Under the pieces are notes generated by a model, which saw nothing but the letters and a program-made list of their open reading frames with translations, ran no database searches and was not told the DNA's origin. A stretch of 64,000 nt of DNA from Candidatus Heimdallarchaeum aukensis (lineage in GTDB: Archaea > Asgardarchaeota > Heimdallarchaeia > Heimdallarchaeales > Heimdallarchaeaceae), in contig CP084166.1 of NCBI GenBank assembly GCA_021513695.1, forward strand, positions 2,624,001 through 2,688,000, in the 5' to 3' direction. Positions 29,260-64,000 of the stretch are shown here, piece by piece (the first letter of the stretch is position 1; every line of letters begins with the position of its first letter). Position numbers and translations under genes: made by a program.

Positions 29260-29262
29260 AAA

Positions 29263-31772: not shown

Positions 31773-31777
31773 GAATA

Positions 31778-33233: not shown

Positions 33234-33235
33234 AA

Positions 33236-35226: not shown

Positions 35227-35629
35227 ATATATAAAAATAGGAAAAGAAGAAAAAGAATTCATTAGTAAAATAGAAGATATCAGCGGACAGAATCTATATG
35301 CATGTTATCAATGTGGAAAATGTACCGCTGGATGTTCTTTTAGTAATCAGATGGATCTTACAGTAAACCAAGTTATTCATAGATTACAACTTGGGCAAAA
35401 AGAAAAAGTGCTGAGTGCAAAGAGTCCTTGGGTATGTGCGAGTTGTTTGACTTGTACAGTTAGATGCCCACGAGATATTGACGTAGCTGCAATAATGGAG
35501 TCAGTAAGAGAATACATTCTACGTTATGAACCTGAGAGAATAGAAAGAATGAAAGTTACAGGAGAAAAAGCTAAAAACTTGCCTAACATTGCCCTCGTAG
35601 GTAGTTTTAGGAAGAATACTGAATTATAA
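35216..35629 (+). CDS. hdrC: Heterodisulfide reductase subunit C-like (2x[4Fe-4S])
   Basis: CYQCGKCTAGCSF and CASCLTCTVRCP motifs. Confidence 0.7.
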   Translation: MSFEYIKIGKEEKEFISKIEDISGQNLYACYQCGKCTAGCSFSNQMDLTVNQVIHRLQLGQKEKVLSAKSPWVCASCLTCTVRCPRDIDVAAIMESVREYILRYEPERIERMKVTGEKAKNLPNIALVGSFRKNTEL

Positions 35630-35641
35630 TAGGTGAATTAA

Positions 35642-36532: not shown

Positions 36533-36549
36533 AAAAAAGAGGAATAAAA

Positions 36550-37272: not shown

Positions 37273-37277
37273 GAAAA

Positions 37278-48800: not shown

Positions 48801-51800
48801 TAGTGATGTCTTCTGTTAAGAAGGTGAGTATATCCCCGACGCCAGAATAAACAAGTTTTAACATTTGTTCTAACTCTAAATCCAAGAAGAATACAGATGA
48901 GAGATACAACTTTGCTTCTTTAAATACATTCATGTTCACTAGATATGGGTATGATTTTCTGATTTCAGACATTCTAGAAATGAAGTCTTGAATTGAATAA
49001 ATCCCTAATTCATGTAATTTTTCTACATATTCACTTGTTATTGATGGACAATTTTCTAGAGGAATTGCAAAACGAAGTCTTTTCTCTTTTAATTCATCTA
49101 AAGATAACAAGTCAAATATATGAAATTCATCATAAATAGGATTGTTTAGAATTTGTGATAATTGTCCTTTTTCAAAAAGAGACAAATCGATTACTGAGTG
49201 AATATCCTGTAATTCTAGTTTCTTTATTTCTTCAAAAGACAAGAAACTAAGAAAAGTTATTGAACCTGATAATATTTCTTTAAATTCTCTATATTTCTCT
49301 TGCTTTAAGATACTGGATGCACCCATTCTTACTCCAGCATAGTACAAAGTTTCTATGTCTGATATTCCTATATCTCGTAATTTAGAAATTTCAGTTTCCG
49401 TGATGAGAGAAGAAGGCATAATAGGGTGAGATCTTGCTTTGTGTAATTCAACAATTTCACTATAAGATAGATTTTCCTTTATTTCATTAATCCTTTTTTG
49501 TGTTTCATTAGATATTTCAGAAAGTTTTTTGGTTGGTGTTGAATAAAAGTCTATTAATGTTGTAATTGAAGATCTGCTAAGAGGAAGAGCAAGATTAACG
49601 TCCAAGTTTAGTGAAGAAATAGGAATAGACAAATCACCTATAAGTTTATCTAAACTATTTTCTTCACCTAGTTTGTTTTTAATTTCCAAGAGAGGAGAGT
49701 TCTCCTCGAATTCAAGTTCAAATAAGCTCCCTAAAGTAATTATAAAGTATTTATTCCTCATATCTTCACTTAAAAGATTGAGAAAAGGTGTAATTCCAAG
49801 TGGTAATTCAAAAACTGAACGAATAAGTGTAATGTTACATTTTTCAAAAGCTAATTGTCTTTCAAATTCGCTGAGGGTTTTTATCAAATCTGTGCTGGAA
49901 ATAACATCAAGTAATGTTAACTCTTCAATATCTTCCAGAATAGTAGAAAAGAAGTCTTTATTGTAAGCAGTTGCAGAAAGAAAATCAAAGTAGTGATAAG
50001 CTCTCAAGTCAATTAATTTAGAAGAATAGTCTGAAACAGTTCTAAATAGCGTTCTATCCGTTAAATCGCTATCTAATATGAATATTAAATGGTAAAGGTG
50101 GGTTATTTGGTTTTGATTAAAAATAGTCAAAGAATAATCTGAAATCTCCTGAAAAATCCGTAAAGGAAGTGATAATATTTTCTTTAATGTGAAAACTTTT
50201 CTCCAGATTGATGAGTTTCTGTCGATGAAAACTTCATCGGGACAGTAGAAAAGTTCTTGAATTGATTGAAATCCTTCATAACTGTAAATTGTTTCTCTAC
50301 TTAGCGTTCTTTGTTCATTTTTGTCAAAAAGTCTAGTTTCATATGCATAGATTGCTCGCGCCTCATATTCTTCTCTTATTCTCTGTGATGTTAAAATGTC
50401 AATTATTTCCTTTGTTTCTTTTGTTGTAATGTTTAGGATATTACTGAGTTTAACAGATGAAGTAGAAACGAAATCAACTATAGTTAATATACCCGCTTTT
50501 CTCAATTCTTCAGTTTGTGAAAAAGAGATATTTGGTAAGAAATAAACAGGGAGACTGAAAAAGTAAAAAATTTCACCAAGATCTAGACTTCTCTTAATAT
50601 TATCAAAACGTTCGTCGGGAATCCCTGTTCTTTCCATTAGAACTTTAGATGACGTAAGTAGAAAACCTAACAATGTATTTATTTTGTTTTTCTTTAAGAG
50701 CTTAATTATATCTGGATCTAACATGTCTGACAAGTGCTTAAATCGTAAATTTAGCACATTTTTTAAATTCTGAACTATCTCCCATGGAATTGTTCTTATT
50801 GCCCATTTTTCTTGCTGAGTAGAAAAGTATAGGTCCTCAATGGTAAAGATGTTGTTAGTTTCTAAAATTTCTACTATCGATGGTCTAAAGATATCAAGTT
50901 CAGAAATATCTGTTCCAGTTTCACTAATCCTGATATTTTTCTTGTATTTTTTAGCTTCTTCTAAATCAATTTTTAAAATAGAAGCGATTGTTTCATCACT
51001 AACAAGGAAAAAGTCAATGATTCTTCTGATTCCAGTTTTTCTTAGAGCATTCAGCTGTTCATGGGATAAGCTTGTTATTTCAATTTCTTCAATTTCTTCC
51101 TCTTGTTTTGTTTCTTCATTTAATATCTTCTTCTTTGTGGTTTTTTCCCAAGTAACTAGCGTCAGGGGAGAACGCAATAGTTTCTTGAATTTTTCAATTA
51201 CACCCCATTTTATTATGGGAGCACCAAAAGTGTAAGGGTGTGTTAAATAAAATAGCTGGTCTATAGAATTGTAACCAATAACAAGTAAAGAACGGATTTC
51301 TTCAGGTGAAAAACGTTCTGAATTTTCAAAATCAAAGGAGATTATTGATTCATACTTACCACTAGATACTTTCTCGTAGAATGGTTGTCCATCTCTATTT
51401 ACATCAAAATTGTTTATTAACTCATCAAAATTCTTCTTTGAAAAATTAAGTATCGTGCTTAATTCATCAAAACTGTAATTTAAAAATTGGTGCAGAGAGT
51501 AAATCTTTTTTGAAGCTAATACTTCATAATCTTTAAGTTTCAAGCTTTTTATACGAGTGATTGGTAATTGCAAAAACTGATAGAAATCAATTATTTCGTG
51601 AGATAACAAAACTTTTTCTGCAAACTCATCAGTATCTTTAAGATTTTTACTATTTATATTGTCGTAGAGTTCAAGTAAAATTTTTTTGTCTTTATTTTTT
51701 GAAATTTCTGTCTCAATAAATACAGGTGTAAGTTGAAGGAAATCTCTTATTGTATTTACATCCTTGGTTTTGAGCTTAAGAAGAGCATCATTCAATGACT

Positions 51801-54800
51801 TTGCTTTAGATTTTGTTGGGGCTAACTTTGCTAAAAATATTAGATCTTCATTCATGAATTCTCTAAAGTTATTCATCTTAGTTAAAAGATCTGAAATCGA
51901 CGGAAGTTCTTCTTCAATATAAAAGTAAAACAACTCTTGTATTGTTGTTTGTTGTTCATTGAATTGCTTAACCAATCTTGGAAAGTGTTTTTTTATTATT
52001 TTTAAATTTCCTTTGTATCTTTCTTTATTTTTTGTAATCTTGTTAGCAGATATACTTTGTTTTAGACGTATAATTTCTTGTTCGTTAAGGTTTAATACCA
52101 AAGAGAGTTCTTTATTACTCCATATTAGAAACCTGCCTATACAGTTTACTCCAATTTCATTCAAAACGTTAATTTTCTCGTTTAGTTCAGGAAAAGCAAA
52201 AATCAAGGGAGTTCGTAATAGTAAGTAATCTGAAACATATTGTTTCTTTGTTTGTTCATCTTTAAATTCAAAATTCTCTGGTTGAGAATATAGAATGTCC
52301 TCTACTGTATAAATTTCATATTTACTTGCTTTGTTCTTCAAAGATAGAAAGTTAGGAATGGGCGTACCTATCTTTTTCTTTATTCTTGCAATCTCGCTTT
52401 TTAATAAACCCATTTCGCGTAATTTTTTCGATGGTGTAATCAAGAATGATGTGGAAGTAAATATCTTGTTTTCTAGCAATTTTTCTTCAGCTTTTTCACT
52501 AATCACTTTTAAGTGTGATAGGTCAAGGTCTTTATTTACTTCATTAAGATGAGAAAGAATGCGAAACTTTGATTCTTCTAATAGACTATCAACAAAAACA
52601 CTTAGTTCTTTTTTCATTAACGTTCTTAATTTAGCGTTTGCATATTGTGCTAAGGTTTCTATATTCGCTGATTTAAGACTGTCTAGTATGTTTTTTCTTA
52701 TATTGTCATCTATGGTTGATATTAGTCCTAGTTTGTTAAGAGGGATAGATCTCTCGCTGTTAGCTAGAATAGTGAAAAATCTAGTATAAATAGAACGCTC
52801 TAATTCTTTGATTTCTAAAAGGTCTTTAGTTGGCGTTTTAAGAAAATTATCTATTGTCTCTATCTTTCTTCTATGAAAAGCATTTTTAGAATATCCATCT
52901 ATCCAATCAGGTTTCATTTTTGTAATGTTGACCTTTAGAAAATCAGGAAACTTTTCTGAAACATGTGAAAATACCTTTTTAACGTAATCAATCAACATTT
53001 CTGTTAAATCATTATCATATTTAAACGAAAAAGGCTCATTGAACTTATAAATAAAATCCTCTAACCCCTTAAACTTATTTGAAAAGTTGGGATAACTTGT
53101 TTTTATATAATTGAAATCTGGATACAGAAATTCTTCTTTTAACTCTGAATAATCAGACATAGTTTCTAAATTAAATTTAAATTCTTCGATAAAGATCGAC
53201 AACTCTACTGTTTCTTGGCCATCTTGAGATTTTGTAACTTCGTTAATTAGCTTAAATTTGTTATCTTCTATTAGACGTTCTACTAAACCTTCAACTAAAC
53301 GCAATTGTGTAGCTTCTGTAGCTAAATAATGATAGCTATTTTGAATCCATCTTTGATATAATGCTTCATTGAAACTACTACTAGTTCCTTGACGTGCAAA
53401 CCTCTTATCTATCATTTTATTTGTTAATGCTTTTAGTGGGAGTTCAGGGCTCAACTTAGACCTGTCTAGTTCATAAATTGTTCTTTGTTTTATTCTTGAA
53501 ACTTCTTTTTTTGAAAGATTCAAAATAGGAGCTAGTTCTGAAACAGGTATGGAAAGAAACTTTCCAATTGTTAAAATATCACTTTTAGCACAACTTTTCT
53601 TGTATTTATCAGGGCACCACACATTAAGTTCAAAAATGGGTGTCCCTAAAGGAACAAAATTTCTAATTTTCTTTTTTGCTCCGTGAGCTAGAGCTGCTGC
53701 AACTTTATATTTTTCTTTATTTATGTTTGTATAAACTATTTTTTCATTCTCTAAAATTCTTGCGAGGTTATCAATTACAACAGGTGCTGATCGTACAAAA
53801 CGGGATAATCGTGCATGTTCTCTTTTCCTTCTTTTTGCTCTACTAAGGAATGTTTTAAGTCTTCTACCAAGTTGTTGTAAAGCTAACCTAATCTCTTCTT
53901 CAATTTCTGGGACGGTTGAGATATACTCCTTACTCGTTTCAGGAAAAGGTATTTTTGTACTTACAATTGATACTGCAATCGCGAGAGGATCTGATTGTCT
54001 TGTAAGACCGTATTCACTCCAATTAAGCGAAGAAACTACTTTTGTAATAACGTCATTTCCCGCACCAAAAATTAAAGGAATTCTATTTGCATATCGATAA
54101 ATTATTTTGTTGTCGACTGACGTGCTTCCTTTTTGTTGAGCATATTTTGATACTCCCCCCCCATAACCTATTGCTGCTTCAACGATAAAAGGATGACCAG
54201 AATAAGCTTTTGGAGGACGAGAAATCGCTTCTACAAACTCTGGTTCAAGTTCTTTTTCTAAACCTTTTCTTAATCTTGCTGCTCCTAAAGGAGAAAGAGC
54301 ATCACCTTGTGGAGCATCAAATCTAAAGATTCTATCTCTTTTTCTTTTTATTTCTTTAGCCTCTTGGTAGGCTTTGATAAATCCTTCATGAACTATTCTT
54401 CTAATTTCTTTAGAAGTAAGGTCGCTAGGCTTTTTATTAGGGTCAATTTCTAAAATCTGAAAGAACTCTTCAGCTACTTCTTTTCTTACTCCCATAAAAT
54501 CTTTTGACAGAAAATCAACTAGATTTTCTGCAGAAGTAGCAGCAATTTTTGCTTTAAACTGAGTGATATCACATCCAAATGGGTGTAACTGAATTACTTT
54601 AGGAGGGTCGGGCATATCATCTACTACTTTTTGGAAAACTAATGTTTCACTTGTTCCTTCTTCATCTCCTGGAAGAACTACAGTAAAACTTGCATAGGGA
54701 GTAATTATAGCTAATTGTTTAAAATACTCCTTAATACTGTTCTTTGCTAGATTCCAAGCTCCAGTAAAAGTTATACTTATCTCAGTACCGCTAGTGTGCA

Positions 54801-55365
54801 AATATCCTGGGTCATCTGGATTATATTCGTGTTGTTCCATAATAACAGGTTCATTTTTTTCCAAGTTGATCATTAAATGAACTTCTGTAGTCATTTCTTC
54901 CATGAAGTATCTGCTCTTTATCCTTGCAGGAAGATCTACAGATGACATAGAATGTAGTAGACACATCTTGGCTCCTAAACCAAATCTGCCTCTAGTTTGA
55001 ATTACTCCATATTTTGTTCCTGTTAATACTCTACCAAAAAGATTTGGAATCTCATGACCAGGAACACCTACACCGTTATCTCTACATGTTAACTGAAGAA
55101 AATCAAGATGTTTTTCTAACTGTTTATATCTGGTAATATCTAATAATTCATTAATTTCAGAACTTGATAACTTCCTTAATTCAATATATATTTCAGGGTT
55201 CACACCTAGTTTTTCTGCTGCATCTAAGCCATTCTCGACCAATTCTCTAACAGAGGTAAAAACAGCTCGCATCGAGTTGCCAAAACCTGCAATGGCCTTA
55301 TTTTCATTGAAGAAAGCAGCTGCACTCATTTTTCGTGTTTTATTTTCTTCAGCCACAAAATTCAC
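42811..55365 (-). CDS. top6B: Giant (4184 aa) DNA topoisomerase VI subunit B fusion. The N-terminal ~540 aa carry the Top6B GHKL ATPase and transducer. They are followed by ~3,500 aa of tandem HhH-like repeats and a Lys/Thr-rich basic tail.
   Basis: Bergerat-fold motifs ELVENGLDA (N box), RDNGVGVP (G1) and GRFGLGAKM (G2), then a transducer-like region ending in a long basic helix. The rest is one uninterrupted ORF. A 12.5-kb stop-free frame in AT-rich DNA cannot arise by chance. SD GGAG 7 nt upstream of the ATG. Confidence 0.8.
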   Translation of the reverse strand: MNFVAEENKTRKMSAAAFFNENKAIAGFGNSMRAVFTSVRELVENGLDAAEKLGVNPEIYIELRKLSSSEINELLDITRYKQLEKHLDFLQLTCRDNGVGVPGHEIPNLFGRVLTGTKYGVIQTRGRFGLGAKMCLLHSMSSVDLPARIKSRYFMEEMTTEVHLMINLEKNEPVIMEQHEYNPDDPGYLHTSGTEISITFTGAWNLAKNSIKEYFKQLAIITPYASFTVVLPGDEEGTSETLVFQKVVDDMPDPPKVIQLHPFGCDITQFKAKIAATSAENLVDFLSKDFMGVRKEVAEEFFQILEIDPNKKPSDLTSKEIRRIVHEGFIKAYQEAKEIKRKRDRIFRFDAPQGDALSPLGAARLRKGLEKELEPEFVEAISRPPKAYSGHPFIVEAAIGYGGGVSKYAQQKGSTSVDNKIIYRYANRIPLIFGAGNDVITKVVSSLNWSEYGLTRQSDPLAIAVSIVSTKIPFPETSKEYISTVPEIEEEIRLALQQLGRRLKTFLSRAKRRKREHARLSRFVRSAPVVIDNLARILENEKIVYTNINKEKYKVAAALAHGAKKKIRNFVPLGTPIFELNVWCPDKYKKSCAKSDILTIGKFLSIPVSELAPILNLSKKEVSRIKQRTIYELDRSKLSPELPLKALTNKMIDKRFARQGTSSSFNEALYQRWIQNSYHYLATEATQLRLVEGLVERLIEDNKFKLINEVTKSQDGQETVELSIFIEEFKFNLETMSDYSELKEEFLYPDFNYIKTSYPNFSNKFKGLEDFIYKFNEPFSFKYDNDLTEMLIDYVKKVFSHVSEKFPDFLKVNITKMKPDWIDGYSKNAFHRRKIETIDNFLKTPTKDLLEIKELERSIYTRFFTILANSERSIPLNKLGLISTIDDNIRKNILDSLKSANIETLAQYANAKLRTLMKKELSVFVDSLLEESKFRILSHLNEVNKDLDLSHLKVISEKAEEKLLENKIFTSTSFLITPSKKLREMGLLKSEIARIKKKIGTPIPNFLSLKNKASKYEIYTVEDILYSQPENFEFKDEQTKKQYVSDYLLLRTPLIFAFPELNEKINVLNEIGVNCIGRFLIWSNKELSLVLNLNEQEIIRLKQSISANKITKNKERYKGNLKIIKKHFPRLVKQFNEQQTTIQELFYFYIEEELPSISDLLTKMNNFREFMNEDLIFLAKLAPTKSKAKSLNDALLKLKTKDVNTIRDFLQLTPVFIETEISKNKDKKILLELYDNINSKNLKDTDEFAEKVLLSHEIIDFYQFLQLPITRIKSLKLKDYEVLASKKIYSLHQFLNYSFDELSTILNFSKKNFDELINNFDVNRDGQPFYEKVSSGKYESIISFDFENSERFSPEEIRSLLVIGYNSIDQLFYLTHPYTFGAPIIKWGVIEKFKKLLRSPLTLVTWEKTTKKKILNEETKQEEEIEEIEITSLSHEQLNALRKTGIRRIIDFFLVSDETIASILKIDLEEAKKYKKNIRISETGTDISELDIFRPSIVEILETNNIFTIEDLYFSTQQEKWAIRTIPWEIVQNLKNVLNLRFKHLSDMLDPDIIKLLKKNKINTLLGFLLTSSKVLMERTGIPDERFDNIKRSLDLGEIFYFFSLPVYFLPNISFSQTEELRKAGILTIVDFVSTSSVKLSNILNITTKETKEIIDILTSQRIREEYEARAIYAYETRLFDKNEQRTLSRETIYSYEGFQSIQELFYCPDEVFIDRNSSIWRKVFTLKKILSLPLRIFQEISDYSLTIFNQNQITHLYHLIFILDSDLTDRTLFRTVSDYSSKLIDLRAYHYFDFLSATAYNKDFFSTILEDIEELTLLDVISSTDLIKTLSEFERQLAFEKCNITLIRSVFELPLGITPFLNLLSEDMRNKYFIITLGSLFELEFEENSPLLEIKNKLGEENSLDKLIGDLSIPISSLNLDVNLALPLSRSSITTLIDFYSTPTKKLSEISNETQKRINEIKENLSYSEIVELHKARSHPIMPSSLITETEISKLRDIGISDIETLYYAGVRMGASSILKQEKYREFKEILSGSITFLSFLSFEEIKKLELQDIHSVIDLSLFEKGQLSQILNNPIYDEFHIFDLLSLDELKEKRLRFAIPLENCPSITSEYVEKLHELGIYSIQDFISRMSEIRKSYPYLVNMNVFKEAKLYLSSVFFLDLELEQMLKLVYSGVGDILTFLTEDITTISLILDIPETEIIKIKENISVKKILNEVEEKGIKLESLALLSKRNLLSLQKLNKDTVQDLYGLCYQIKSFSEEFKENIDNFLSLCNSSVFRISNLSRFIKRSLAKNRILRVIDLFIVREKDLKKIFNSIPEELKDKRKGNISLSSGIPILEEDKELISTLTDFKFNLSKASFEDIFGLVPEYLLIFSESEKIEKASSIAKLEELIYGLCLNIFSISDMSLDVKLDLWKNGVKNIIELLTLSSEEKRTIPSNARSEIIRFVKEFSKEKLVNLIPKDHLDILSNKSDKLDIKTSPDVINLLDLLPQPFVISSQILFSNSNSLTSMVKYPIIWLDKFSQIDQLEFLRNLMKEDKKLILDLLLLPPDNIDIELAEYVVSSLSDFQIPKWAIKLRDVKFLSKQQKLYLKKINIEYLDQLLCLQDYSSEDKNLSSIKKTLSLFGTTPISFLSSLSLQQNSILFENKINTILEFLSIPSVSLGKLFEIEYKEINTIKLQISKRNIVSELKLYGIDLNLLPSLTEKELTKEGKLPLIKKREAKEGTSPKTIKKPEVSTIEYLNENEIYSLIQLFYHDVDQLEINKDEKEKLIVNIPILFTPIKTIERILGISTKNINESLKNKKTYYDYLHIPIHLWETLLPKLDKAIKENNSLFIRNLSSLQFSTLDIANLKLNKSLVQKLYSLGVFSIEYLYYFPEEFFLSLPDSYIEEIKDIRMKLSRNINNLPILTLDTIKSCYNKKLVYIIDVISSIQNLDDAMVDEILSSLSMLKNLHLESFIPPLGSYEEKAMKLGYLSYQELLGDVNLKDKSIFAEISPYLLANIRYLGLEEKIETNLKKGGTYTIADLLLIPYKTVAKESRIKLDQILKLRSSIKIDKIKKTIEKDKPNHFVDLPFLSEKEKSTLLSYGFYSFSDLEENSIYNWLYDIKKIEKIRTKIKQILDTSILFLSSINSLKFEEIETKYFDNNLFTIRDLVKNDQLVSFGDYNTIISNLIKDKKKTLSLTLKTKDFLGTINSKNLFSKNIEIPEISNIIDFISVLYMNKEFLTKTGLEILNLLNSSVSIITDFTEKEVEKLNEHKIETLKDLLIKPISYSSFLSEKQLEKVNHVLSTLNVKTIKKLRDKRVQLSNIMLFDSETKKKLLKYYTVIDDLVYDLSKKHCKLRSKLRNNVQKILNKSIYLISFPQLPLENWLKLLSKVSTLQEMLLLSKPALAKIISTNISEVDTFLSKITISRISNPPALKTNIVLQDFDIAELRENGIKNYLDLFENTDVVSNLSPSLRTKIGLLQKLSSRYFDEKLPDLSFQQLVFFNIHHDSLKVNSQVSKRLLDIYSFIFSKPTKFEEKLNLPEKDELKVQYTLESLLLLEKYDKKQFDKITSSFPETITLHFNEYLQFLNRHVILLVNESFENKEKFKQYGNLTIGDLILKPRYQLSQIIDDNRLIRQIRNLSLETLRTLASKLTPIPETILDKTELDVLSQGHIFSIEEAYVFNIVSKSKTSKRWKITEKLRLRIEQKIYSLPLVFESKETFRLLLKSNTKTVYDLLLLNKSSNITVLKNLLSQIPFHDLDSLASQSNSKLIDFVNDKEIINELNENDINSLGELIALFEEKNISDLSMKVKDVLSCFRASLALFIRQKNILFQLAKRGYEQVYDLFFLQNIDDLQIKFTEKQRAEFTELLNSLNMTKVKEQLELNSYRIKDLGLFSDTEKSILENGGYSHIIHLSVSDKRIKEQTELSIRQISTLKELLSYPIYSFYALMQDKPNSIFKLYHKQKYSLWDVFNTKINELTEITNITERQLRNYFATLTPQSLKIAKKGKTQIVKSTPFMSSEIISKLKEIGISSFEELIFADNRTKRKDIFKNKNVQKLLKLIEEPIEKLDVKQQIRNKLNSLGINTIGEFIAYPTSQLEGKLEMTYNDIKKIKQTIPFVKTTTTKAKRPSTTTKKTTTTKTKRPSTTTKKTTTTKTKRPSTTTKKTTTSKRTKQTTLDEISADTKIETKKRSTK
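42904..43038 (-). repeat. Three tandem copies of a 45-bp direct repeat at the 3' end of the giant top6B gene, encoding (KRPSTTTKKTTTTKT)x3
   Basis: The unit ctttgttgttgtacttggtctctttgttttagtagtcgttgtttt recurs at 42904, 42949 and 42994, the last copy with 2 mismatches. It reads in frame on the minus strand as KRPSTTTKKTTTTKT. Confidence 0.85.
43040..53580 (-). other. Region of the giant top6B gene encoding a tandem array of degenerate (HhH)2-type repeats (RpoA-alphaCTD/NusA/HhH_5-like). At least a dozen strong copies and many weaker ones.
   Basis: Recurring ~55-65-aa unit L..xGIxTIxDL...S..eL..ILNI[ST]xKE..EIK..L. Examples: LRKTGIRRIIDFFLVSDETIASILKIDLEEAKKY, LRKAGILTIVDFVSTSSVKLSNILNITTKETKEI, LNEIGVNCIGRFLIWSNKELSLVLNLNEQEIIRLKQ, LNSLGINTIGEFIAYPTSQLEGKLEMTYNDIKKIKQ, LHELGIYSIQDF, LRDIGISDIETL. 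Confidence 0.5.
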
Positions 55366-55503: not shown

Positions 55504-58440
55504 TTATTTTTTCTTGCGGAACAATTGTTGTTTTACTGGTTCTGGATTAATTGTTAGAGAAGAAACAATTATACCAAGTGTTAGAATAAATAATGCTGCA
55601 AAAGCCCCTCCAGTTCTGTAAGAGTCAGCTCTTCCGATTATTGAGAGGAACTCATCTTCTATTTGTTTAGCAAGGTTATCTGTGGAATATAGGATATCTT
55701 CGAGCCAGAATAAGTTTGCCATGTCTGCAGTAAGTTTTGGATAAGTTTGATGCCATGTTCTGTATTTATATTGAATGTCTTCAGTATCTTCTACAACATC
55801 TTCATCAAGGAATGGATAGTACTCAATATATTGTCCTGCATAAGTGTTGTATTGTACTCTATCTCTTCGTTCAAGAATTGTACCAGTTGTTGGGTCAGTG
55901 AAGATCTGTTGGAAGTGGAATTCATCACGTATAGAACCTGGGAAGGTGTGAGTGATATAAATATCGTCATTCTTCCAATCGGTACCATGAATTTGGTTCC
56001 ATCTTCCTACATGGACGAAACTCTCGTTTAGGTAGTCTGCATACTCTTGCCAGTATAAATCGTATTGATCGACTTGTAGGTAAGGTTGTTGTGTATCTGC
56101 ATAATAAATGTAAGCATCTCTACCATACATGATTGTTTTATCTCTGGCTGAATCAAATATAAATGGACGATAGAAGTACTCAACCCATCTTTGTGTAAAT
56201 CCTCTTTCTGTGTTTGGAGGTAGGACATCTAATCCATAAGTTTCACTAAATGGTTCAAACTGTGTAGTCTTCATTGGCCAATTGTTTAATTGAACAAAAG
56301 AAGCTTTATCCCAAATTTCAACGAATGTTCTTAATTCGTCTCTATGTAAGACATCACTGAATGAACCTGAAGAATAGGTTATGTGTATTAATCCTTTTGA
56401 ACCATCTGCAAGGTAAATGTTTTCACCAGAAGCATAAATATCGTATGCTTCTCCGTCACTATCATAAGTTGCTAAACTTGTTAAGGAATTGACGTTAGAT
56501 GCATCAACTACAATCAAACCATTTTCTCCAGCAGTGAGATATAGCAGATCGTTGTTTTGGTATAGGTTGAAGAATCCACCAGAAACACCAAAGTCATATG
56601 TTCCTATTTGAGTTAAGGTGTTTCCACTAATGGAATAAACAACAAGTCCTAAGGTGTCATCAAGAACATACAGAGTTGTTCCATCTAATAATAACTGAGT
56701 TGCTCCAGTAAGAGAAACGTTTGCTAATGATTCTAATGTAACTGCATCAAAAACTTCTATTCCTCGTCCCTGTTCAACAGCATAGGCTTTTGTTCCATCA
56801 GTTACAACAGCTGTAACAGGAGATTCAGTCTCTTTAAGTGTGTTTAGTGATATGTCTCCTCCATTAGTAGTTGCTTTAGCTAATCCATATTGACCCATAG
56901 CGATGAGCATAAAAGTCTTTGTTGGATTATATTCAAGGTCTAAAGCGTTTATATCTCCTCCATTGGTCCAAACTGTAATTTGGTCAATTTCTGTAAGATC
57001 AGACATATCTAATGAAACTATTCCTTTTTCTCCTGCTGCTACGTATGCAAAATCGCCATATAAACTAGTTTCAAAAGCGATGTCTCTGAAGAAATAACCT
57101 TGTAATCTGTATCCACCAATACCCAAAAACAAGGGGCTGGATGTGTTTACTATTCTAAATCCTCTATTTCCTTCAATAACATAAGCGAATTCGTCATTCA
57201 TTTCAACCTTATAACTTTGAGATTCTTCGAAGGTTGGTATGTTGGCTATTCCAATGATTTCATCAACTTTTGTTATATTATCTCTTCCTGTTTTAACAGC
57301 GTATAATAGGTCTGTTGAAGGATCAACTGAGTCAACTGCAAATGACTGATTAACTAAGAAAGGATATTTTTTTCCGCCGAGGAGTGGATCTTCAACTCCT
57401 GTAACCCATTCTAAAGCTGTTCTTTCACATATGTATGATATCTTGTTTTCATATAACCAGTTTAAAGCAGGTGTACCAGTAAGATATCTGATGTATGCAG
57501 CAAAAGATTGAGCTTGTTCTAGTTCCTCTGGTGTATCGATGTCATAAATTTCTGCTAACTTTTGAGTTACATTAATTGTGAGGATTGAGGGGTCATAGCT
57601 TAACCCTTGGACTAAATCAAGGAAGTACTTCATAGAACCGGCTTCTCCAGTGAATAGAGAATAATCATGACCATCTGCAGTAATTGCATTAAAGAGAATT
57701 TTGTAGGCTGTAGCGCTATCAAAGTTAATATCAGTGTGGTCAGGACGTGAGTTGATCCACATGTGAGGGCTATATTTGATACTATAAATTAGGTCGTTAG
57801 TTTGAGCATATGCCTTATTTAGCACAAGTTTAGCAATCTCACTGTTGTTGTATCCTAAACCTTCTAACTCGCTTCGAATCATAAATCCTGCAACATAAGC
57901 TTGTAAACCATATTCTGAACCATTACCAAAATTTTTCACATAATATGGCCAGAGGTAGTTATAATTGATGATTTTCTCATTACCTGTTAATGTTGAAAGT
58001 GTTTTATTTAAAGTGTATTGTTTCCGTTCGGTGTAAACAACATAATCATTTTCTTCACTATAATCAATTACAAATTTCTTCACTTCTAAGTCAAATACTA
58101 GTTTTCCTGGAATACCTATGTAAGTAATTGGAGTGTTCTTGTACAAGTATGCGTTTCTATCACTTATGTTGTAAAATTCTATATACGTATGAGCGTAATA
58201 ATTACTATCATCAGAGTATTTAGCAACATACATCCAATCAGAGTAATTGTCGCTTCCTCCTTCATAAGGATCAAGATCGTCTTCTGTAATCATACCATAC
58301 TCATTTAGCTTCTCTTCTATTTGATTATTGATTTTAATAGTTTGAATTGGTAACATTACGCCAACTGCGATAGCTGATCCAGAAGTTAAAATTAAAATAA
58401 ATATTCCTAACATTACACGGAATTTTTTCTGCATAGTCAT
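55504..58440 (-). CDS. LVIVD-repeat (beta-propeller) surface protein with an N-terminal signal/TM and a C-terminal TM anchor
   Basis: Repeated GLIVVDASN, GLVVYSISG, GIEVFDAVT, GFRIVNTSS and GIVSLDMSD motifs of the LVIVD repeat. Hydrophobic N-terminus (MLGIFILILTSGSAIAVGV), C-terminal GGAFAALFILTLGIIVSSLTI followed by basic residues. Many NxS/T sequons. Confidence 0.6.
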   Translation of the reverse strand: MTMQKKFRVMLGIFILILTSGSAIAVGVMLPIQTIKINNQIEEKLNEYGMITEDDLDPYEGGSDNYSDWMYVAKYSDDSNYYAHTYIEFYNISDRNAYLYKNTPITYIGIPGKLVFDLEVKKFVIDYSEENDYVVYTERKQYTLNKTLSTLTGNEKIINYNYLWPYYVKNFGNGSEYGLQAYVAGFMIRSELEGLGYNNSEIAKLVLNKAYAQTNDLIYSIKYSPHMWINSRPDHTDINFDSATAYKILFNAITADGHDYSLFTGEAGSMKYFLDLVQGLSYDPSILTINVTQKLAEIYDIDTPEELEQAQSFAAYIRYLTGTPALNWLYENKISYICERTALEWVTGVEDPLLGGKKYPFLVNQSFAVDSVDPSTDLLYAVKTGRDNITKVDEIIGIANIPTFEESQSYKVEMNDEFAYVIEGNRGFRIVNTSSPLFLGIGGYRLQGYFFRDIAFETSLYGDFAYVAAGEKGIVSLDMSDLTEIDQITVWTNGGDINALDLEYNPTKTFMLIAMGQYGLAKATTNGGDISLNTLKETESPVTAVVTDGTKAYAVEQGRGIEVFDAVTLESLANVSLTGATQLLLDGTTLYVLDDTLGLVVYSISGNTLTQIGTYDFGVSGGFFNLYQNNDLLYLTAGENGLIVVDASNVNSLTSLATYDSDGEAYDIYASGENIYLADGSKGLIHITYSSGSFSDVLHRDELRTFVEIWDKASFVQLNNWPMKTTQFEPFSETYGLDVLPPNTERGFTQRWVEYFYRPFIFDSARDKTIMYGRDAYIYYADTQQPYLQVDQYDLYWQEYADYLNESFVHVGRWNQIHGTDWKNDDIYITHTFPGSIRDEFHFQQIFTDPTTGTILERRDRVQYNTYAGQYIEYYPFLDEDVVEDTEDIQYKYRTWHQTYPKLTADMANLFWLEDILYSTDNLAKQIEDEFLSIIGRADSYRTGGAFAALFILTLGIIVSSLTINPEPVKQQLFRKKK

Positions 58441-58672
58441 TTTCCTCGCAACAATATCTGTTTATGCTTCCGTCTCTTATGTCTATTTAAATGTAATGAC
58501 ATAATCACTAGACATATTGGACTAGAGACATTATCAGTGCAACAGAGAAATAAACAATTATATATTTTGCGTATGTGTTCTTTTTAAGGAATCATATATC
58601 TAGAAGATTTTTATCCAAAAACAAGTTGATGAAAAAAAGTATGTAAAAAGAAGGTATGTATCCATAGAAAGA

Positions 58673-59938
58673 TTATCCACTTTTCTTCTCTTCTTCATCC
58701 TCTTTTGAGATGTTCTCTTCTATTAGATAGTATTCCTTCTCAAATAAACTATCACACGAAGATAAGATGGAAGCTCCAATAAGTTCGCCGTCAGAATTGT
58801 ACTCTTTGACGATTATATTGTTTAATATATTAAATGAATCAACAATTTCCTGGGGAATACTAACAAAAGAGAATATTCCTCTAATGATTGTTCCTCTTCT
58901 CTTATCACCGTTTATTGCAAAAAATACATCCTTATTTGAGTACTTTTGTCTAAAAACCTTATAATTTGCAACTGATAGACCTTCGTCTGTTGTTTGAATA
59001 CTAATAAAACCTCTTAAAGGAGGATTGTCGATTTCTATACTTGATGCTAAATTTTCAACTTTCAACAGAACTGTAAAATCATTAATTTGCTCATAAATGT
59101 CATAAGCAACCAAAGAACAAAGACCCTTTGCTTCCTGAAAAATATACAGAAAGTCTGACAAATCATAGGAATAAAAGTCATTCTTTGAGATAGAAGCTGT
59201 TGTAATATCAATTATTATATTCATTACTCTATCTCTAAATTTGTTTTTCAACTCAAGATAATCATTGGAAGGGTTGTTTTCTATTAATTTATTATGATCT
59301 AGTAGGATAAATGGAATTAAGGTATTTTCTAAATTTATTAAATATGAAATGAAACTCAAGAACGAAACTTCAGCATTTAAGTCCTGTTTTCTTAATGGCT
59401 TTTCAAGGATAACTATTGGAGTTTTTCCTTTCTTTTTAATGATGGGTAAGAGATCCATTAACAAACCAAACAGAAAACCATCATTTCCTGCGAAAATAAA
59501 GATAATTGAAGAATTTCCTGTAACATTTTCGATTTTCTGCAAGACCTCAAACTGATTTTCCCTAAACCACTTTTTTCCCAAAGAAAAAGTAGAATTTATG
59601 ATCTCTCTACTAGGTAATCGAATAGAATGATTCTTGTTTTCATATTTGTTCAATATCTCTTCATTAGCTAATAGTAGGGAATTGCATTTTTTTATTCTTC
59701 TTGTAAGAGAAGGATAGAATTCACAGCTTTCTTCTAAAAATAGAAACGCAAAGTCCTTTAGTTTTTCTTCTCCTTCAAAAAACAGGGTATCAGATAACTC
59801 TGAACCAAAAAAAGGTTTTTCATCATTTCTACTATCTGAAATTATTCCCTGAAAATCAAATTTGTATAAAGGATTGAATTTTTGTTTCCTTGTCCCTAGA
59901 ATTGTTTTTTTCCTTTTTAATATTCTTTTCAAACTCAT
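58673..59938 (-). CDS. Highly divergent FtsZ/tubulin-superfamily protein with a degenerate GTP-binding signature (possible pseudo-GTPase)
   Basis: IIFIFAGNDGFLFGLLMDLLPIIKKKGKTPIVILEKPL...TLIPFILLDHNKLI aligns residue-for-residue in spacing with FtsZ [38 protein letters not shown]...TLIVIPNDKLL. GNDGFLFG replaces the GGGTGTG motif. The downstream DFYSYDLSDFLYIF region resembles FtsZ NVDFADVKTVM. Confidence 0.4.
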   Translation of the reverse strand: MSLKRILKRKKTILGTRKQKFNPLYKFDFQGIISDSRNDEKPFFGSELSDTLFFEGEEKLKDFAFLFLEESCEFYPSLTRRIKKCNSLLLANEEILNKYENKNHSIRLPSREIINSTFSLGKKWFRENQFEVLQKIENVTGNSSIIFIFAGNDGFLFGLLMDLLPIIKKKGKTPIVILEKPLRKQDLNAEVSFLSFISYLINLENTLIPFILLDHNKLIENNPSNDYLELKNKFRDRVMNIIIDITTASISKNDFYSYDLSDFLYIFQEAKGLCSLVAYDIYEQINDFTVLLKVENLASSIEIDNPPLRGFISIQTTDEGLSVANYKVFRQKYSNKDVFFAINGDKRRGTIIRGIFSFVSIPQEIVDSFNILNNIIVKEYNSDGELIGASILSSCDSLFEKEYYLIEENISKEDEEEKKSG

Positions 59939-60007
59939 TTTGCAACACTTAACGAAACTTCATTTTATATTTTATTTATTGCTTTTTATTTCTATCGAAA
60001 AGCAATT

Positions 60008-61414
60008 TTAATGTTTTCCCGCAAGTACTTCATTGGTGTTGAATACTTGGATTGTATTAGTTTTTCTTGGTATGCCTAAATAGCTTCCTCCTACTAATAC
60101 TACAGTGTCATCATCCTTCAAATGTTCCTCATTAATTAATCGTGAAATACAAGTGTAAACTAGTTGATCATAATCTGTTTCATATGTGTGGAAAATAGGC
60201 TTCACTCCCCAATAGAGTTGTACTCTTCTTAATGTCCTCTTTTCGGGTGTAGAGGCAAATATTGGTAAGTGCAATCTATATTTTGACACCATTTGCGAAC
60301 TATAACCTGTACGAGTAAGAGCAATTATAGCTTTAGCAGAAAGATTCTGAGCAATATCGACAGCTGCTTTTCCTATAGATTCTTCTATGTTTTTAGCTTT
60401 ATACCTTGGAATAAAAGTGAGATCGCTTTTTTCTGCTTCTCTAATAATTTGATCCATTACGTTGATTACAGTAATAGGATGAATTCCTGTAGCAGTTTCA
60501 GCGGACAACATCACTGCATCAGCACCATCAAAAACAGCATGGGCAACATCACTAGCCTCAGCACGAGTTGGGATAGGTTCAATTGTCATTGATTCGAGCA
60601 TCTGTGTAGCAACGATCACTGGTTTTCCAAGTTCCATTCCCATTTGAATATATTGTTTTTGTAAAACTGGCACTCTCTCAGGGCCTATTTCAATTCCTAG
60701 GTCTCCTCTTGCAACCATTAATCCATCACAATTCTTCATGATGGACTTAACGTTATTCACTGCATCAATATGCTCAATCTTTGCAATTATGGGAATATAT
60801 TGAGATGTTGAGGATTTTATTATCTCTTTTATCTTCTTAATGTCTTTGACATCTCTTACAAAACTTATGAAAAGATAATCGACTTCTAAATCACAAGCCT
60901 TTTCAATATCCTTTATGTCTTTTTTAGTTGGCACATGTAAAGTTAAATTTGAATCAGGAACATTCACTCCTTTTCTTGTTGATATTGTTCCGCCATCTCT
61001 AACTACGCATTTAATTAAACTCCCATCAATTTCTAAAACCTCTAGTTTTACTAAACCATCATTAATAAAAATAGGTGAACCCACTTTCACTTCTTTGTAT
61101 AAATCTTTGTAATTAACTGAAAAGTAATTTTTTGTACTTATTATTGATTCATCATTGGTTATTGTTACCTTTTCACCAATTTCTAGTGAAACTGCCTCTT
61201 TAAATTTTCCAATACGTATTTTGGGACCAGCTATATCAATTGCTATTGCAATATTAGGACAATTTTCTCTAATTCTATTAAAAATTGTTTCATGTTCGTT
61301 GTGAGTTCCATGAGAGAAATTTAATCTAGCTACATTCATTCCAGCTTTTTCCATCTTTTTCAGCATTTCTGCAGAATCAGATGATGGCCCAATAGTGCAA
61401 ACAATTTTAGTCAT
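60008..61414 (-). CDS. pyk: Pyruvate kinase
   Basis: MTKIVCTIGPSSDS...NVARLNFSHGTHNEH and MVARGDLGIEI motifs. The ORF opens with TTG at 61420, the ATG is at 61412-61414. Confidence 0.85.
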   Translation of the reverse strand: MTKIVCTIGPSSDSAEMLKKMEKAGMNVARLNFSHGTHNEHETIFNRIRENCPNIAIAIDIAGPKIRIGKFKEAVSLEIGEKVTITNDESIISTKNYFSVNYKDLYKEVKVGSPIFINDGLVKLEVLEIDGSLIKCVVRDGGTISTRKGVNVPDSNLTLHVPTKKDIKDIEKACDLEVDYLFISFVRDVKDIKKIKEIIKSSTSQYIPIIAKIEHIDAVNNVKSIMKNCDGLMVARGDLGIEIGPERVPVLQKQYIQMGMELGKPVIVATQMLESMTIEPIPTRAEASDVAHAVFDGADAVMLSAETATGIHPITVINVMDQIIREAEKSDLTFIPRYKAKNIEESIGKAAVDIAQNLSAKAIIALTRTGYSSQMVSKYRLHLPIFASTPEKRTLRRVQLYWGVKPIFHTYETDYDQLVYTCISRLINEEHLKDDDTVVLVGGSYLGIPRKTNTIQVFNTNEVLAGKH

Positions 61415-61637
61415 TCTCAACTTTAATCGTCTAAGTATTCGTATTTTTACTTAAAAGATTATGCTTGTGTTCTTTCTCCAAATTTGAAAAAACAACCTTT
61501 TTTTGCAAGTGTAACTGTTTCAAAGAATTGATTTTCCTATCTAGAGGACCAATCAGTTATTTTTTTTTAAGAAATCCTAATTTGTTATTGTTTCTCTTGC
61601 GAAAGTTTAAAAATGTAAATTTGCTCTTTTCATTGAA

Positions 61638-62948
61638 ATGGAAGAAAATTCAAAAACTCTTGTTAGTGGGATTAAAGCAAATTTAGTATATCCAGAATCT
61701 AAAGTAAAACCAGTCTTTAATTTTGAAAATATGATAGTTGAACATTATAAACGATTTCCACGAACTGCAGTTTTAATCGAAAATCCAAAATATGCAAAAG
61801 CTCTAATGAACCCTCTAAAATCATTTTATCTAGTACCTATTGCCATTTTCAAAGTCAAATTTAATACTGTTCTCTCAATGAAATTTTGGAATTATATCGC
61901 TTTGTGGTTATACATCCTTATTGTTTCTATTCCTAACTCTGTTTTTATGTATATAACGTTTAGTAGCAACAAAATTTTGGGAGACATAACTTTTTCAGTT
62001 ATTATACCCATGTTGGTTTCATCCCTAGTAGCTCTTTGGTATTTGAAATTTACTCATGATGGTTTCTTTGGATTGATTATAGAGAAAAAAGTTGAATGGT
62101 TAGAAAAGCCTGTAAAAGAATATTATGATAAATATTATGATAAAAAATTTAGCTTAAATATTGTTTTAGTTGTTTTAAGTGTCTTAACATCATTAGGAGT
62201 GGGAATTCCTGTATTAATTTATGCTTCAAGTCAAGGTTTACAATCTGCAATTATATTTGGAGTTATAGGAATGATTTGTAATTTCGTAGTTTTTTATATT
62301 TTCTACTTATCTTTACAATATACTATATTAAACACCAAAATCTATTCTAAAGTATTAAACGCAATAAAAAGTAGAATTGATATCTATCTCAATGAGTATG
62401 GAACTTTGTTAAATAGTGAAAATTACGAAATTATTTGGGCTCTAGGAGATACCCCTGGAAGATCAATAAGGCAGCTTGAAAATATACCCGTGGCTGGAGT
62501 GTTATCTGCGTTAATAGTAACAATTGCCATGTTGATGGGAACAATTAATCAAGCAGTCCTTGGAGTAGTCAAAGGGAATATGCCAACAGTGAATGTATTC
62601 AATTCGCAAATGAGTCTTAACGCAATAATAGCTGCAATCTCCCTAGTTATAGCTATCATAATAGTACTAATTGTTGTTCTTCCATTGTATATCTTCAGTG
62701 GAAAAATGAAGAAATTCAAAATTAAAGCTTTAATAGAACTTGATAACTATATTTTTGCAAATGTAATGGAATTTGAACAACGCTATTCTGAACTTGCAAA
62801 GCAAGAAACAGTAACAATATTTGCTCTCAGAGAGTATATATCGGGTATGAGAACAATTCCTATTTCAGCAGCAAAGATTATCAAAAGTTTAACAGCTGTT
62901 GCAGTATGGTTTGTAAATGTCCGAAAAATAATTAGAGCGTTTAATTAA
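61638..62948 (+). CDS. Hypothetical polytopic membrane protein
   Basis: 436 aa with ~8 hydrophobic helices. No recognised motif. Confidence 0.4.
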   Translation: MEENSKTLVSGIKANLVYPESKVKPVFNFENMIVEHYKRFPRTAVLIENPKYAKALMNPLKSFYLVPIAIFKVKFNTVLSMKFWNYIALWLYILIVSIPNSVFMYITFSSNKILGDITFSVIIPMLVSSLVALWYLKFTHDGFFGLIIEKKVEWLEKPVKEYYDKYYDKKFSLNIVLVVLSVLTSLGVGIPVLIYASSQGLQSAIIFGVIGMICNFVVFYIFYLSLQYTILNTKIYSKVLNAIKSRIDIYLNEYGTLLNSENYEIIWALGDTPGRSIRQLENIPVAGVLSALIVTIAMLMGTINQAVLGVVKGNMPTVNVFNSQMSLNAIIAAISLVIAIIIVLIVVLPLYIFSGKMKKFKIKALIELDNYIFANVMEFEQRYSELAKQETVTIFALREYISGMRTIPISAAKIIKSLTAVAVWFVNVRKIIRAFN

Positions 62949-62958
62949 GTGAGGAAAA

Positions 62959-64000
62959 ATGTCGTTCTTAAAGAAACTTAGAAAAAAATCAATAGATATC
63001 GCAGTAATTGCTGTTGGTGACGCAGCTTGTATAATAGGTGCTAAATTTATCCAAAATTTAAAAGAAAATAAGATTAATGTCAAATCTCTGGCAGTGAACA
63101 CAAAGAACAACTTTGGTTCTAAGATTTCTGATCCTTATAATGACAAGTTTTGGTTTGCTGAGCAATATTCTTCTACAAATCGTAATTTAGAATTTGCAAG
63201 AAAGCTTTTAGAAGAAAGAAAAGAGGTTCTAACTGATAAATTGAGGAATGTTGTCTTTTATCGTTTAGATGATAAAAAACGTAAAGAGAAACTCGCTTTA
63301 CATCTTATAATTGCTAGTGGAGGAGGAACTGGTTCAGCAGGTTCAATGATAATAAGTAAAATAATCAAGGATATAACTGGCGAATCTCCAACAATAATAT
63401 TTATTGTTCCTGAAAAGCATGAACCTTCTATTGTTCAATATAACACAGCAACAGCTTTGTTCTATCTAGGATTTGATAGTCTAGGTCCTAATTGTCCTAC
63501 TATTCTTTTTGACAATGAAAAATTAATTTCAGTTGATGAAACTTTGGATATTAAAAAGGCATTGGACTATTGTAATAACTATCTAGCTGATACTCTCTCT
63601 ACTACTATTTTAGCAGCTCTGCAAGAATCATCTCATGAAGAATTTAATGCTGGTTTAAATGATTTCTTCAAATCTTTTAGTTCTGAAGCAAAAGGAATAG
63701 GTGTTATTATCTCTGTCGATAAAACTTTTGAATCGTTAGAAAAAGCACAAAATATTAGGTTTTCTGACATATTCTTCAAAGAATTAGAACTAACATCAAG
63801 TTTAACTGCAGACATTACTAAAGCAAGGTTGGGCTTCCTATCTATTATCGCTCCTCATTCTTATCAGACAACTTTTGAAACCAAAAAGATAGTAAAAAGA
63901 TTCGAAAAAGGGTCAATTAAAGTCTCATTAACAGCTTTAGAAGAGCCTATACTTTTAATACGCGGTGTAATAACGGGGTTGCATCCTGATTTCATTGAGA
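62959..64000 (+). CDS. FtsZ/tubulin-superfamily GTPase, divergent (intact T4 signature, atypical T1 loop). The C-terminus runs off the window. Not in the supplied ORF track.
   Basis: Own translation from the ATG at 62959 (SD GTGAGGA upstream) gives MSFLKKLRKKSIDIAVIAVGDAACIIGAKF...LALHLIIASGGGTGSAGSMIISKIIKDITGESPTIIFIVPEK...PTILFDNEKLIS. SGGGTGSAG matches the tubulin/FtsZ signature [SAG]GGTG[ST]G. Spacing to the NEKL element is as in FtsZ. The frame stays open to 64000. Confidence 0.6.
   Translation, partial: MSFLKKLRKKSIDIAVIAVGDAACIIGAKFIQNLKENKINVKSLAVNTKNNFGSKISDPYNDKFWFAEQYSSTNRNLEFARKLLEERKEVLTDKLRNVVFYRLDDKKRKEKLALHLIIASGGGTGSAGSMIISKIIKDITGESPTIIFIVPEKHEPSIVQYNTATALFYLGFDSLGPNCPTILFDNEKLISVDETLDIKKALDYCNNYLADTLSTTILAALQESSHEEFNAGLNDFFKSFSSEAKGIGVIISVDKTFESLEKAQNIRFSDIFFKELELTSSLTADITKARLGFLSIIAPHSYQTTFETKKIVKRFEKGSIKVSLTALEEPILLIRGVITGLHPDFIE

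Follow-up and report, generated by a model that had tools for sequence, protein, structure and literature searches.

The window analysed here, a stretch of 64,000 nucleotides from Candidatus Heimdallarchaeum aukensis (GenBank assembly GCA_021513695.1, contig CP084166.1, positions 2,624,001 to 2,688,000), carries a gene, called A in the following, that encodes a complete two-domain protein of the tubulin/FtsZ superfamily, of the CetZ/TubZ-like kind, in which the nucleotide site has been destroyed. The gene lies next to those for a pyruvate kinase (PK), a membrane protein (M) and a paralog (B) that is GTPase-competent, and sister lineages of Heimdallarchaeia have an intact GTPase in its place. 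Judging from sequence, we put the probability at about 0.6 that A binds no nucleotide and serves membrane-associated B filaments as an accessory subunit, such as a cap, nucleator or co-polymer partner. The four genes are given here with positions counted from the first letter of the window.

58673..59938, minus strand: gene A, ATG-initiated open reading frame (ORF) for a 421-amino-acid tubulin/FtsZ-fold protein with a dead nucleotide site
60008..61420, minus strand: pyruvate kinase (Pfam PK and PK_C), 69 nt upstream of A on the same strand
61638..62948, plus strand: gene M, 436-amino-acid polytopic membrane protein with about six transmembrane segments, always directly upstream of B
62959..64000, plus strand, running off the window end: gene B, GTPase-competent tubulin/CetZ-like paralog (ASGGGTGSAGS, DN, GLNDF)

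The ORF of A is single and spans exactly the given positions. Within the protein, IIFIFAGNDGFLFG...EKPL occupies residues 145-182, with GNDGFLFG at residues 151-158 (window 59465-59488), and TLIPFILLDHNKLI occupies residues 206-219, with LLDHNKL at residues 212-218. Direct searches with the protein remained without a significant match. Pfam gave nothing at E <= 1 (the threshold of Pfam Tubulin, PF00091, was not reached), the best tubulin-family sequence match in the PDB was CetZ 3zid at E 0.22, and a word-indexed homolog search, even when an alignment served as query, yielded no more than 2-3 proteins. Neither a profile of two sequences nor one of the 16 representatives of the clade that shares the defective site (hereafter the degenerate clade) found anything significant in Pfam or the PDB, and precomputed Pfam assignments are empty for all members of this clade. 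BLASTP of A against its neighbour B gave E 0.32, which is not significant, yet the alignment was collinear.

Direct sequence similarity of A to the superfamily is not above chance, but through intermediates the resemblance exceeds chance by far. An exhaustive HMMER search of 1.84 billion representative sequences, with a profile of A and a 74 %-identical homolog as query, returned 28 proteins in total. Among them are P0001, ~100 % identical to window A, and the 74 %-identical P0002, both labelled Heimdallarchaeaceae by NCBI; besides its own cluster P0001, A has 14 full-length close relatives (E 1e-91 to 3e-30). Nine more distant relatives (P0020, P0022-P0029; E 1e-15 to 2e-4, matches to motif-intact proteins also being given as E 5e-12 to 2e-4) are motif-intact and align G(A/S)GGTG(V/S)G onto GNDGFLFG, GGAG onto LEE-SCE and (I/V)DN onto LLDH. 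The degenerate and the intact clade match each other in hhalign with 99.9 % probability (E 1.2e-32, 369 aligned columns), and the profile of the intact clade finds CetZ 3zid over both domains (4e-12), TubZ/RepX 4ei7 (5e-10) and many FtsZ structures (~1e-9) in the PDB, with the combined family profile reaching E 3.6e-15 against RepX. Pfam Tubulin matches 9/25 of the aligned proteins, which equals the number of members with intact motifs; three of these nine were checked one by one. Sequence homology of A to recognised superfamily members is thereby statistically supported by way of intermediates.

The predicted structure leads to the same superfamily. With an alignment of 25 sequences, the AlphaFold2 (AF2) model of A reached a predicted local distance difference test score (pLDDT) of 88.6 and a predicted template modelling score (pTM) of 0.89, compared with a pLDDT of 34 when two sequences only were supplied, and shows the two-domain tubulin/FtsZ fold. 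Foldseek of this model against the PDB placed TubZ on top (E 1.6e-15), along with FtsZ and CetZ, in a range of 1e-15 to 1e-13 over 315-360 columns. The tubulin/FtsZ-like fold proposed in the first-pass annotation was thus recovered by profile and structure searches, the check set beforehand, and the alignment register proposed around T4 to the NDKLL-like element proved right once intermediates were used. FtsZ, however, to which A had been likened, is not its nearest kin, as the nearest structural relatives are CetZ and TubZ rather than FtsZ or bona fide tubulin. Two other assignments were considered and rejected. For a bona fide Asgard or eukaryotic tubulin, closest similarity to tubulin, OdinTubulin or Atub together with tubulin-specific insertions was looked for and not found, and for a TubZ partition system, no TubR or centromere partner adjoins A, which has a chromosomal context.

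The decay of the GTP-binding signature that had been noticed from the letters (GNDGFLFG in place of GGGTGTG) is real and wider than this one loop, as T1, T4 and the T6 asparagine are gone and so, in most of the clade, is the T7 acid. The relevant sites of window A, all on the minus strand, are:

59717..59740: T1-loop remnant FLEESCEF, with both glycines of G-G-A-G lost, a one-residue deletion and two glutamates
59555..59593: T3/H3 region STFSLGKKWFREN, located by alignment
59465..59488: T4-loop remnant GNDGFLFG for G(A/S)GGTGxG, located by alignment
59285..59305: T6 region LLDHNKL, with the aspartate kept and the asparagine changed to histidine (glutamate in most clade members)
59150..59176: T7/H8 motif FYSYDLSDF, D259 and D262 aligning with TDLGDF of CetZ and DLNEF of intact A (HMMER, 3zid)
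58868..59017: C-terminal-domain motifs (L)RGF.SIQ, N.DV and IIRGI, common to degenerate A, intact A and partly B

Loop by loop, the two forms of A and the paralog B compare as follows:

T1: G(V/I)GGAG in intact A; G(N/D)AGC in B; a G..G remnant in the degenerate clade; FLEE-SCE, with no glycine, in the window
T4: G(A/S)GGTGxG in intact A; SGGGTGSAG in B; (E/D)N(N/D)(G/A)F..G in the degenerate clade; GNDGFLFG in the window
T6: (I/V)DN in intact A; FDN in B; LD(E/H/D/Y) in the degenerate clade; LLDH in the window
T7: DLNEF in intact A; (D/G)LNDF in B; D.SNF in 12/14 other representatives of the degenerate clade; DLSDF in the window

The tubulin signature (G/A)GGTG(S/T)G is absent from all 16 degenerate-clade representatives, and A has neither the T1 GxGxxG nor the T6 asparagine of PF00091 GTPases, the latter being invariant in B and kept in 7/9 intact A proteins. 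Acidic and bulky residues now stand where the phosphate-binding glycines were. In tubulin-family proteins the acidic catalytic residue of T7/H8 is D212 in FtsZ and E254 in alpha-tubulin, whose T7 reads DLTEF. Position 262 in T7 of A is aspartate in window A and P0002 (DLSDF and DVSDF), asparagine in 12 and threonine in one of the other 14 representatives, and glutamate in the intact clade. Some positions outlasted the loss: D214 (T6), R237, D244 (H7) and Y256 are common to all A proteins and partly to B, and in the T3/H3 region F118, G121 and W124 are invariant across the degenerate clade and N128 nearly so, with W124 being clade-specific. Relative conservation in intact A peaks at the nucleotide site, i.e. 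in T4 (+0.30) and in T5 and H5 (+0.15). In degenerate A it has fallen to +0.05 in T4 and -0.04 in T5, and the peaks are found in S7-S10 of the C-terminal domain (+0.10 to +0.17), the motifs of which are the best-conserved part of the protein, and in T7/H8 (+0.08). With its fold kept, its motifs lost and purifying selection acting on it, A may be regarded as a pseudo-GTPase.

That the gene is maintained follows from several lines of evidence. The ratio of nonsynonymous to synonymous changes (dN/dS) between window-type A and the 74 % homolog is 0.16 (dN 0.14, dS 0.92), 21 columns are invariant over the 16 degenerate-clade representatives, which are 25-73 % identical to window A, and at least 16 clusters (50 % identity) contain intact ORFs of full length. 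These intact ORFs, the dN/dS and the invariant columns refute a decaying pseudogene, and the homologs, together with the same ratio and columns, rule out a chance resemblance; the absence of any Pfam or PDB sequence match for A alone or for the clade profile alone would be the one point in favour of either, and we regard both as practically negligible. In a neighbour-joining bootstrap tree rooted on B (a distance method, thus approximate), A is monophyletic (99 %), the 16 degenerate proteins form a monophyletic group on a long stem (100 %) and intact A is their sister group (75 %). All named members of the degenerate clade are Heimdallarchaeaceae or metagenome-assembled genomes (MAGs) labelled "Heimdallarchaeota", while intact A comes from MAGs labelled Hodarchaeota, Kariarchaeota and Heimdallarchaeota. 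Loss of the nucleotide pocket was a single event at the base of a Heimdallarchaeaceae clade. Rates differ between the four genes in the following way:

Identity, window type versus locus L001: A 73 %, B 94 %, M 92 %, PK 93 %
Identity, window type versus locus L006: A 37 %, B 62 %, M 68 %, PK 67 %
Identity, L009 versus L011 (intact lineages): A 44 %, B 41 %, M 46 %, PK 56 %
dN/dS, window type versus L001: A 0.16, B 0.04, M 0.06, PK 0.04

In the degenerate lineage, and only there, A evolves 3-5 times faster than the three other genes. Selection on A is purifying but relaxed.

The second divergent tubulin/FtsZ gene that the first-pass annotation had placed at 62959-64000 (+) is a real one with the signature ASGGGTGSAGS, and the full protein, as seen on a near-identical contig, has 379 amino acids. 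B matches intact A in hhalign with 99.6 % (E 4.6e-24) and degenerate A with 95.8 % (E 7e-9). The 55 full-length clusters at 90 % identity that were recovered with window-lineage B, the named members of which are Heimdallarchaeaceae or Heimdallarchaeota, keep GGGTG, the T6 DN (55/55) and the T7 acid (55/55), and one ortholog (Heimdall AB_125) is annotated as "Tubulin-like protein CetZ". No Pfam family was found for M, which represents an unannotated family tied to A and B. Its orthologs have ~440-490 amino acids and about six transmembrane segments, and share cytosolic-looking motifs that are conserved across Heimdallarchaeia orders, namely L(G/A)DTPG.SI..L.NIP, KF..KAL.ELD..I and F.LRE(Y/F)I..M. 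M and B of the window are orthologous to M and B of the operon in intact lineages (E 3e-25 and 1e-28).

Gene order was rearranged, and the linkage persisted. Intact lineages have PK and then A, M and B as one operon at nine loci where the contig allows it to be seen (three short contigs end before B), with A and M overlapping by 1 nt and M and B separated by 4 nt in L011. In the window and in L001, L004 and L006, PK followed by A diverges from M followed by B, and in L008 A itself diverges from M and B. L022 (7641-11439), the most divergent degenerate-A lineage, has M, B and A in a row, diverging from PK, with gaps of 1 nt (M-B) and 30 nt (B-A), and there B and the dead A are probably transcribed together. 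A is linked to M and B wherever the flanking sequence is long enough to tell, and PK adjoins these genes, or lies within two genes of them, in nearly every lineage examined (L009, L011, L013, L016-L022), in three gene orders and at PK identities down to 42 %. Local regeneration of nucleoside triphosphates as the reason for the PK linkage would be pure speculation. Degenerate A is the positional ortholog of the intact GTPase in sister Heimdallarchaeia lineages, hence of a distinct paralog, and not a decayed copy of its neighbour B. The suggestion that it is a non-catalytic paralog working with that neighbour gains indirect support from the constant linkage to B and the membrane protein through three gene orders.

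The ends of A and its flanks hold further features, again on the minus strand:

59879..59938: basic segment MSLKRILKRKKTILGTRKQK at the N-terminus, the first 20 residues having a net charge of +9
59765..59878: N-terminal extension of ~40 amino acids before strand S1 (FNxLYxF...SDTLxxEGE), located by alignment
within 59939-60007: AT-rich TATA-like box AAATATAAAA, ~25-30 nt upstream of the start codon of A
within 58441-58672: T-rich tracts after the stop codon of A

The basic segment has low AF2 confidence. Similar basic starts, MS(L/F/W)LK..(K/R)KK, occur in A and B of most degenerate-clade loci (for B in window 62959-62995, plus strand), with net charges of +4 to +10 over the first 20 residues in window-type A and B proteins, and this common start could be a membrane- or partner-binding peptide. 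The extension that follows it (pLDDT ~94) is a feature of A proteins that B lacks, and its relative conservation is higher in the degenerate than in the intact clade. The promoter-like and terminator-like signals suggest that A can be transcribed alone in the genome of the window.

Downstream of A, three further genes follow on the minus strand:

55504..58440: LVIVD-repeat protein of 978 amino acids with hydrophobic N- and C-terminal segments
42811-55365: Topo VI-B fusion, an ORF of 4184 amino acids with a GHKL HATPase_c domain (residues 38-135) and a Topo-VIb transducer domain (352-518, E 3.5e-57)
41395-42801: Top6A/Spo11 of 468 amino acids, 9 nt downstream of the Topo VI-B fusion

The LVIVD protein is found directly downstream of degenerate A in every Heimdallarchaeaceae locus of the degenerate clade examined, and not beside intact A. 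In the Topo VI-B fusion, the two recognised domains are followed by ~3600 amino acids of helix-hairpin-helix-like repeats (matches to RAD51D_N and RNA_pol_A_CTD) and a T/K/P-rich repeat at the end. The giant gene is also present in L002, L006, L008 and L022 (4172-4341 amino acids), and a Topo VI-B of such size is remarkable in itself.

Within protofilaments of the tubulin family, each subunit docks on the nucleotide face of its neighbour by a face made up of T7/H8 and the C-terminal domain. In A, conservation has moved from the pocket to T7 and the C-terminal domain, and the simplest reading is that A still docks on B and offers no nucleotide face. A would then no longer bind or hydrolyse GTP, its T7 and C-terminal-domain ("bottom") face would dock onto the nucleotide-bearing face of B, and a nucleotide-free top face would be presented to the next partner. 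It might serve as filament end-cap, nucleator, anchor or occasional co-polymer subunit, tuning the assembly of B and forming no GTP-driven polymer by itself, and the A-B system would work at the membrane with M. Several observations weigh against this proposal. Gene linkage is the sole tie of A to B or M, and in the window A is encoded on the strand opposite to M and B, behind PK, preceded by a TATA-like box of its own and followed by a T-rich tract, so that co-expression is not guaranteed. The AF2 alignment of A included intact homologs. F118, G121 and W124, all invariant, and N128, nearly so, lie in the supposedly free top face and would fit incorporation into a polymer or a new ligand equally well, and the well-conserved N-terminal extension leaves room for the same two options. 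Moreover, T7 has aspartate in window A and its nearest relative and asparagine in most of the clade, and the role may differ between species. As a more far-reaching and rather tentative proposal, PK-A-M-B might be a Heimdallarchaeia-wide, membrane-anchored two-paralog cytoskeletal system in which the A of Heimdallarchaeaceae became a nucleotide-free pseudo-GTPase capping or nucleating B filaments.

A different arrangement would be an obligate A-B heterodimer in a strictly alternating protofilament of the alpha/beta-tubulin, BtubA/B or AtubA/B type, with A as a non-exchangeable half that carries no nucleotide at all. The paralogs do share one tight operon in intact lineages (1-nt overlaps, 4-nt gaps), as described for Heimdallarchaeales alpha/beta-tubulin (PMC13371889), A and B evolve at equal rates there, intact A has an alpha-tubulin-like T7 (DLNEF), and invariant residues of degenerate A sit in loops of both faces. 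However, in strict alternation the T7 acid of B would only face the dead pocket of A, yet it is kept in 55/55 clusters; a conserved acid beside a dead pocket suggests that longitudinal B-B contacts occur and that the T7 of B still acts on nucleotide bound to B, which argues against strict alternation. Likewise, with mostly asparagine in the T7 of A, the GTP of B would never be hydrolysed despite its complete GTPase apparatus, and a three- to fivefold faster evolution of A than of B would be unusual for an obligate 1:1 structural partner. We therefore consider strict alternation unlikely.

It is still less probable that A has taken on a new role as a scaffold of tubulin fold that has nothing to do with B filaments, such as that of an adaptor for M, the LVIVD protein or the Topo VI-B fusion, or that it holds a new ligand in the remodelled pocket. 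That the LVIVD gene and the ~4200-amino-acid Topo VI-B fusion follow A at all loci of the degenerate clade examined, and do not adjoin intact A, would agree with such a change of function, as would the clade-specific conservation of W124 and the N-terminal extension and the promoter-like and terminator-like signals of A. This adjacency could, however, be lineage-specific synteny, given gaps of 232 nt and 138 nt and no link in other lineages, while M, B and PK are the only neighbours kept through all lineages and rearrangements, and the most conserved parts of A, the T7/H8 and C-domain motifs common with B and intact A, point to a tubulin-type contact. That A still binds nucleotide in a non-canonical way and is an active, self-polymerising GTPase or ATPase seems very improbable. 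Remnants that could be cited for it are the G..G of T1 in many clade members, D214 (T6), D244 (H7) and P181 (T5) in all members and both T7 aspartates in the window protein. Against this stand the acidic and aromatic T4, (E/D)N(N/D)(G/A)F.., in 16/16 representatives, the two glutamates and the deletion in the T1 of the window, the lost T6 asparagine, and the drop in relative conservation from +0.30 to +0.05 in T4 and from +0.15 to -0.04 in T5. An accessory subunit of B filaments remains our preferred reading of gene A.

Elsewhere in the window, an Arf/Ras-family small GTPase of 291 amino acids (17895-18770, plus strand; Arf E 3e-33) is a typical Asgard eukaryotic-signature protein, and another Arf-like gene lies close to the A-M-B genes in L022. 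A co-directional cluster with strong positive GC skew at 27230-38936 (+) comprises pyruvate:ferredoxin oxidoreductase, an FAD/4Fe-4S protein, small and large subunits of NiFe-hydrogenase, a CCG-domain protein and an FAD-binding (succinate dehydrogenase/fumarate reductase-like) protein, and looks like an energy module of the Mvh/Hdr type. At 3400-8752 (+), two adjoining proteins have FtsX-like permease domains, one of them unusually large (1404 amino acids).

The tubulin superfamily is defined by GTP-driven assembly, and to our knowledge stand-alone members with the fold but without the nucleotide site are very rare; for archaea, our literature search found none reported. Sister Heimdallarchaeia orders that have the same four-gene neighbourhood with either a complete or a dead A provide a natural before-and-after series, on which it can be tested directly how polymer-forming NTPases lose catalysis and become partners, caps or regulators. 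This question is also behind the alpha/beta-tubulin heterodimer and nucleators of the gamma-tubulin type, and it arises here in a lineage central to eukaryogenesis. If the proposed role holds, A would repeat, independently and in a more extreme form, the subunit specialisation that led to alpha/beta-tubulin. Evolution would then also have produced a regulator of tubulin fold that binds filament ends, in the archaea most closely related to eukaryotes.

Some members of the module have likely been catalogued before. Santana-Molina et al. 2023 (PMC9871819) describe Asg.Tub, a small group of CetZ-like proteins that occurs in Heimdallarchaeia and Lokiarchaeia only and whose gene neighbours are given as of unknown function, and a later preprint (bioRxiv 10.64898/2026.02.15.705738) uses it as an outgroup. 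Going by this published description, B and/or intact A probably belong to Asg.Tub, so that B, and probably intact A, are likely not new to the catalogue. These surveys were based on the Pfam domain Tubulin, to which degenerate A gives no match, and the sections consulted of both papers contain no mention of a motif-less member or of the A-M-B module. Our literature search likewise found no description of an Asgard tubulin homolog without a GTP site or of the A-M-B module. Since surveys by Pfam Tubulin are blind to the degenerate clade, Asgard tubulin-family gene counts are underestimates.

Compared with known systems, A is similar to CetZ (4b45, 3zid) in that 3zid is the best PDB sequence match of the intact clade (4e-12) and in that its DLSDF resembles the DLGDF of CetZ. 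Unlike CetZ, it has no T1/T4 GTP motifs and carries ~60 extra amino acids at the N-terminus; CetZ is found in Euryarchaeota, whereas A is an Asgard protein and belongs to a conserved module that also comprises a membrane protein and another paralog. The likeness comes from nearest-neighbour matches rather than from a tree, and Asgard CetZ-like proteins are, according to PMC9871819, placed unstably between CetZ and tubulin. TubZ/RepX of plasmid and phage partition systems (4ei7, 3m8k) is the top Foldseek match of A (E 1.6e-15), but A is chromosomal, its site is dead, and its neighbours are a membrane protein and PK rather than partition genes.

With regard to function, the closest analogy is ARC3 of plant chloroplasts, in which an FtsZ-like domain forms part of a regulator of FtsZ assembly. 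This domain is not known to have GTPase function, and ARC3 regulates the bona fide FtsZ polymer. Its FtsZ-like domain architecture has been described (PMC12232670), yet ARC3 has additional middle and MORN domains and is a eukaryotic plastid protein, whereas A is a stand-alone two-domain protein, and the link between the two is at superfamily level only. Alpha/beta-tubulin, BtubA/B, Loki AtubA/B and Heim-alpha/beta are, like A and B, pairs of paralogs encoded together. In tubulins, one partner loses catalytic competence through the residue in T7, Glu versus Lys (PMC13371889), and the glutamate of intact A versus the asparagine of degenerate A forms a parallel to this split. A is not one of the bona fide Heimdallarchaeales alpha/beta-tubulins (PMC13371889). 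Both partners of tubulin pairs still bind GTP, whereas A lost the pocket itself, and the conserved T7 acid of B speaks against the strict alternation of such heterodimers. The division of alpha/beta-tubulin into a catalytic and a non-catalytic partner is the closest conceptual analogy for A.

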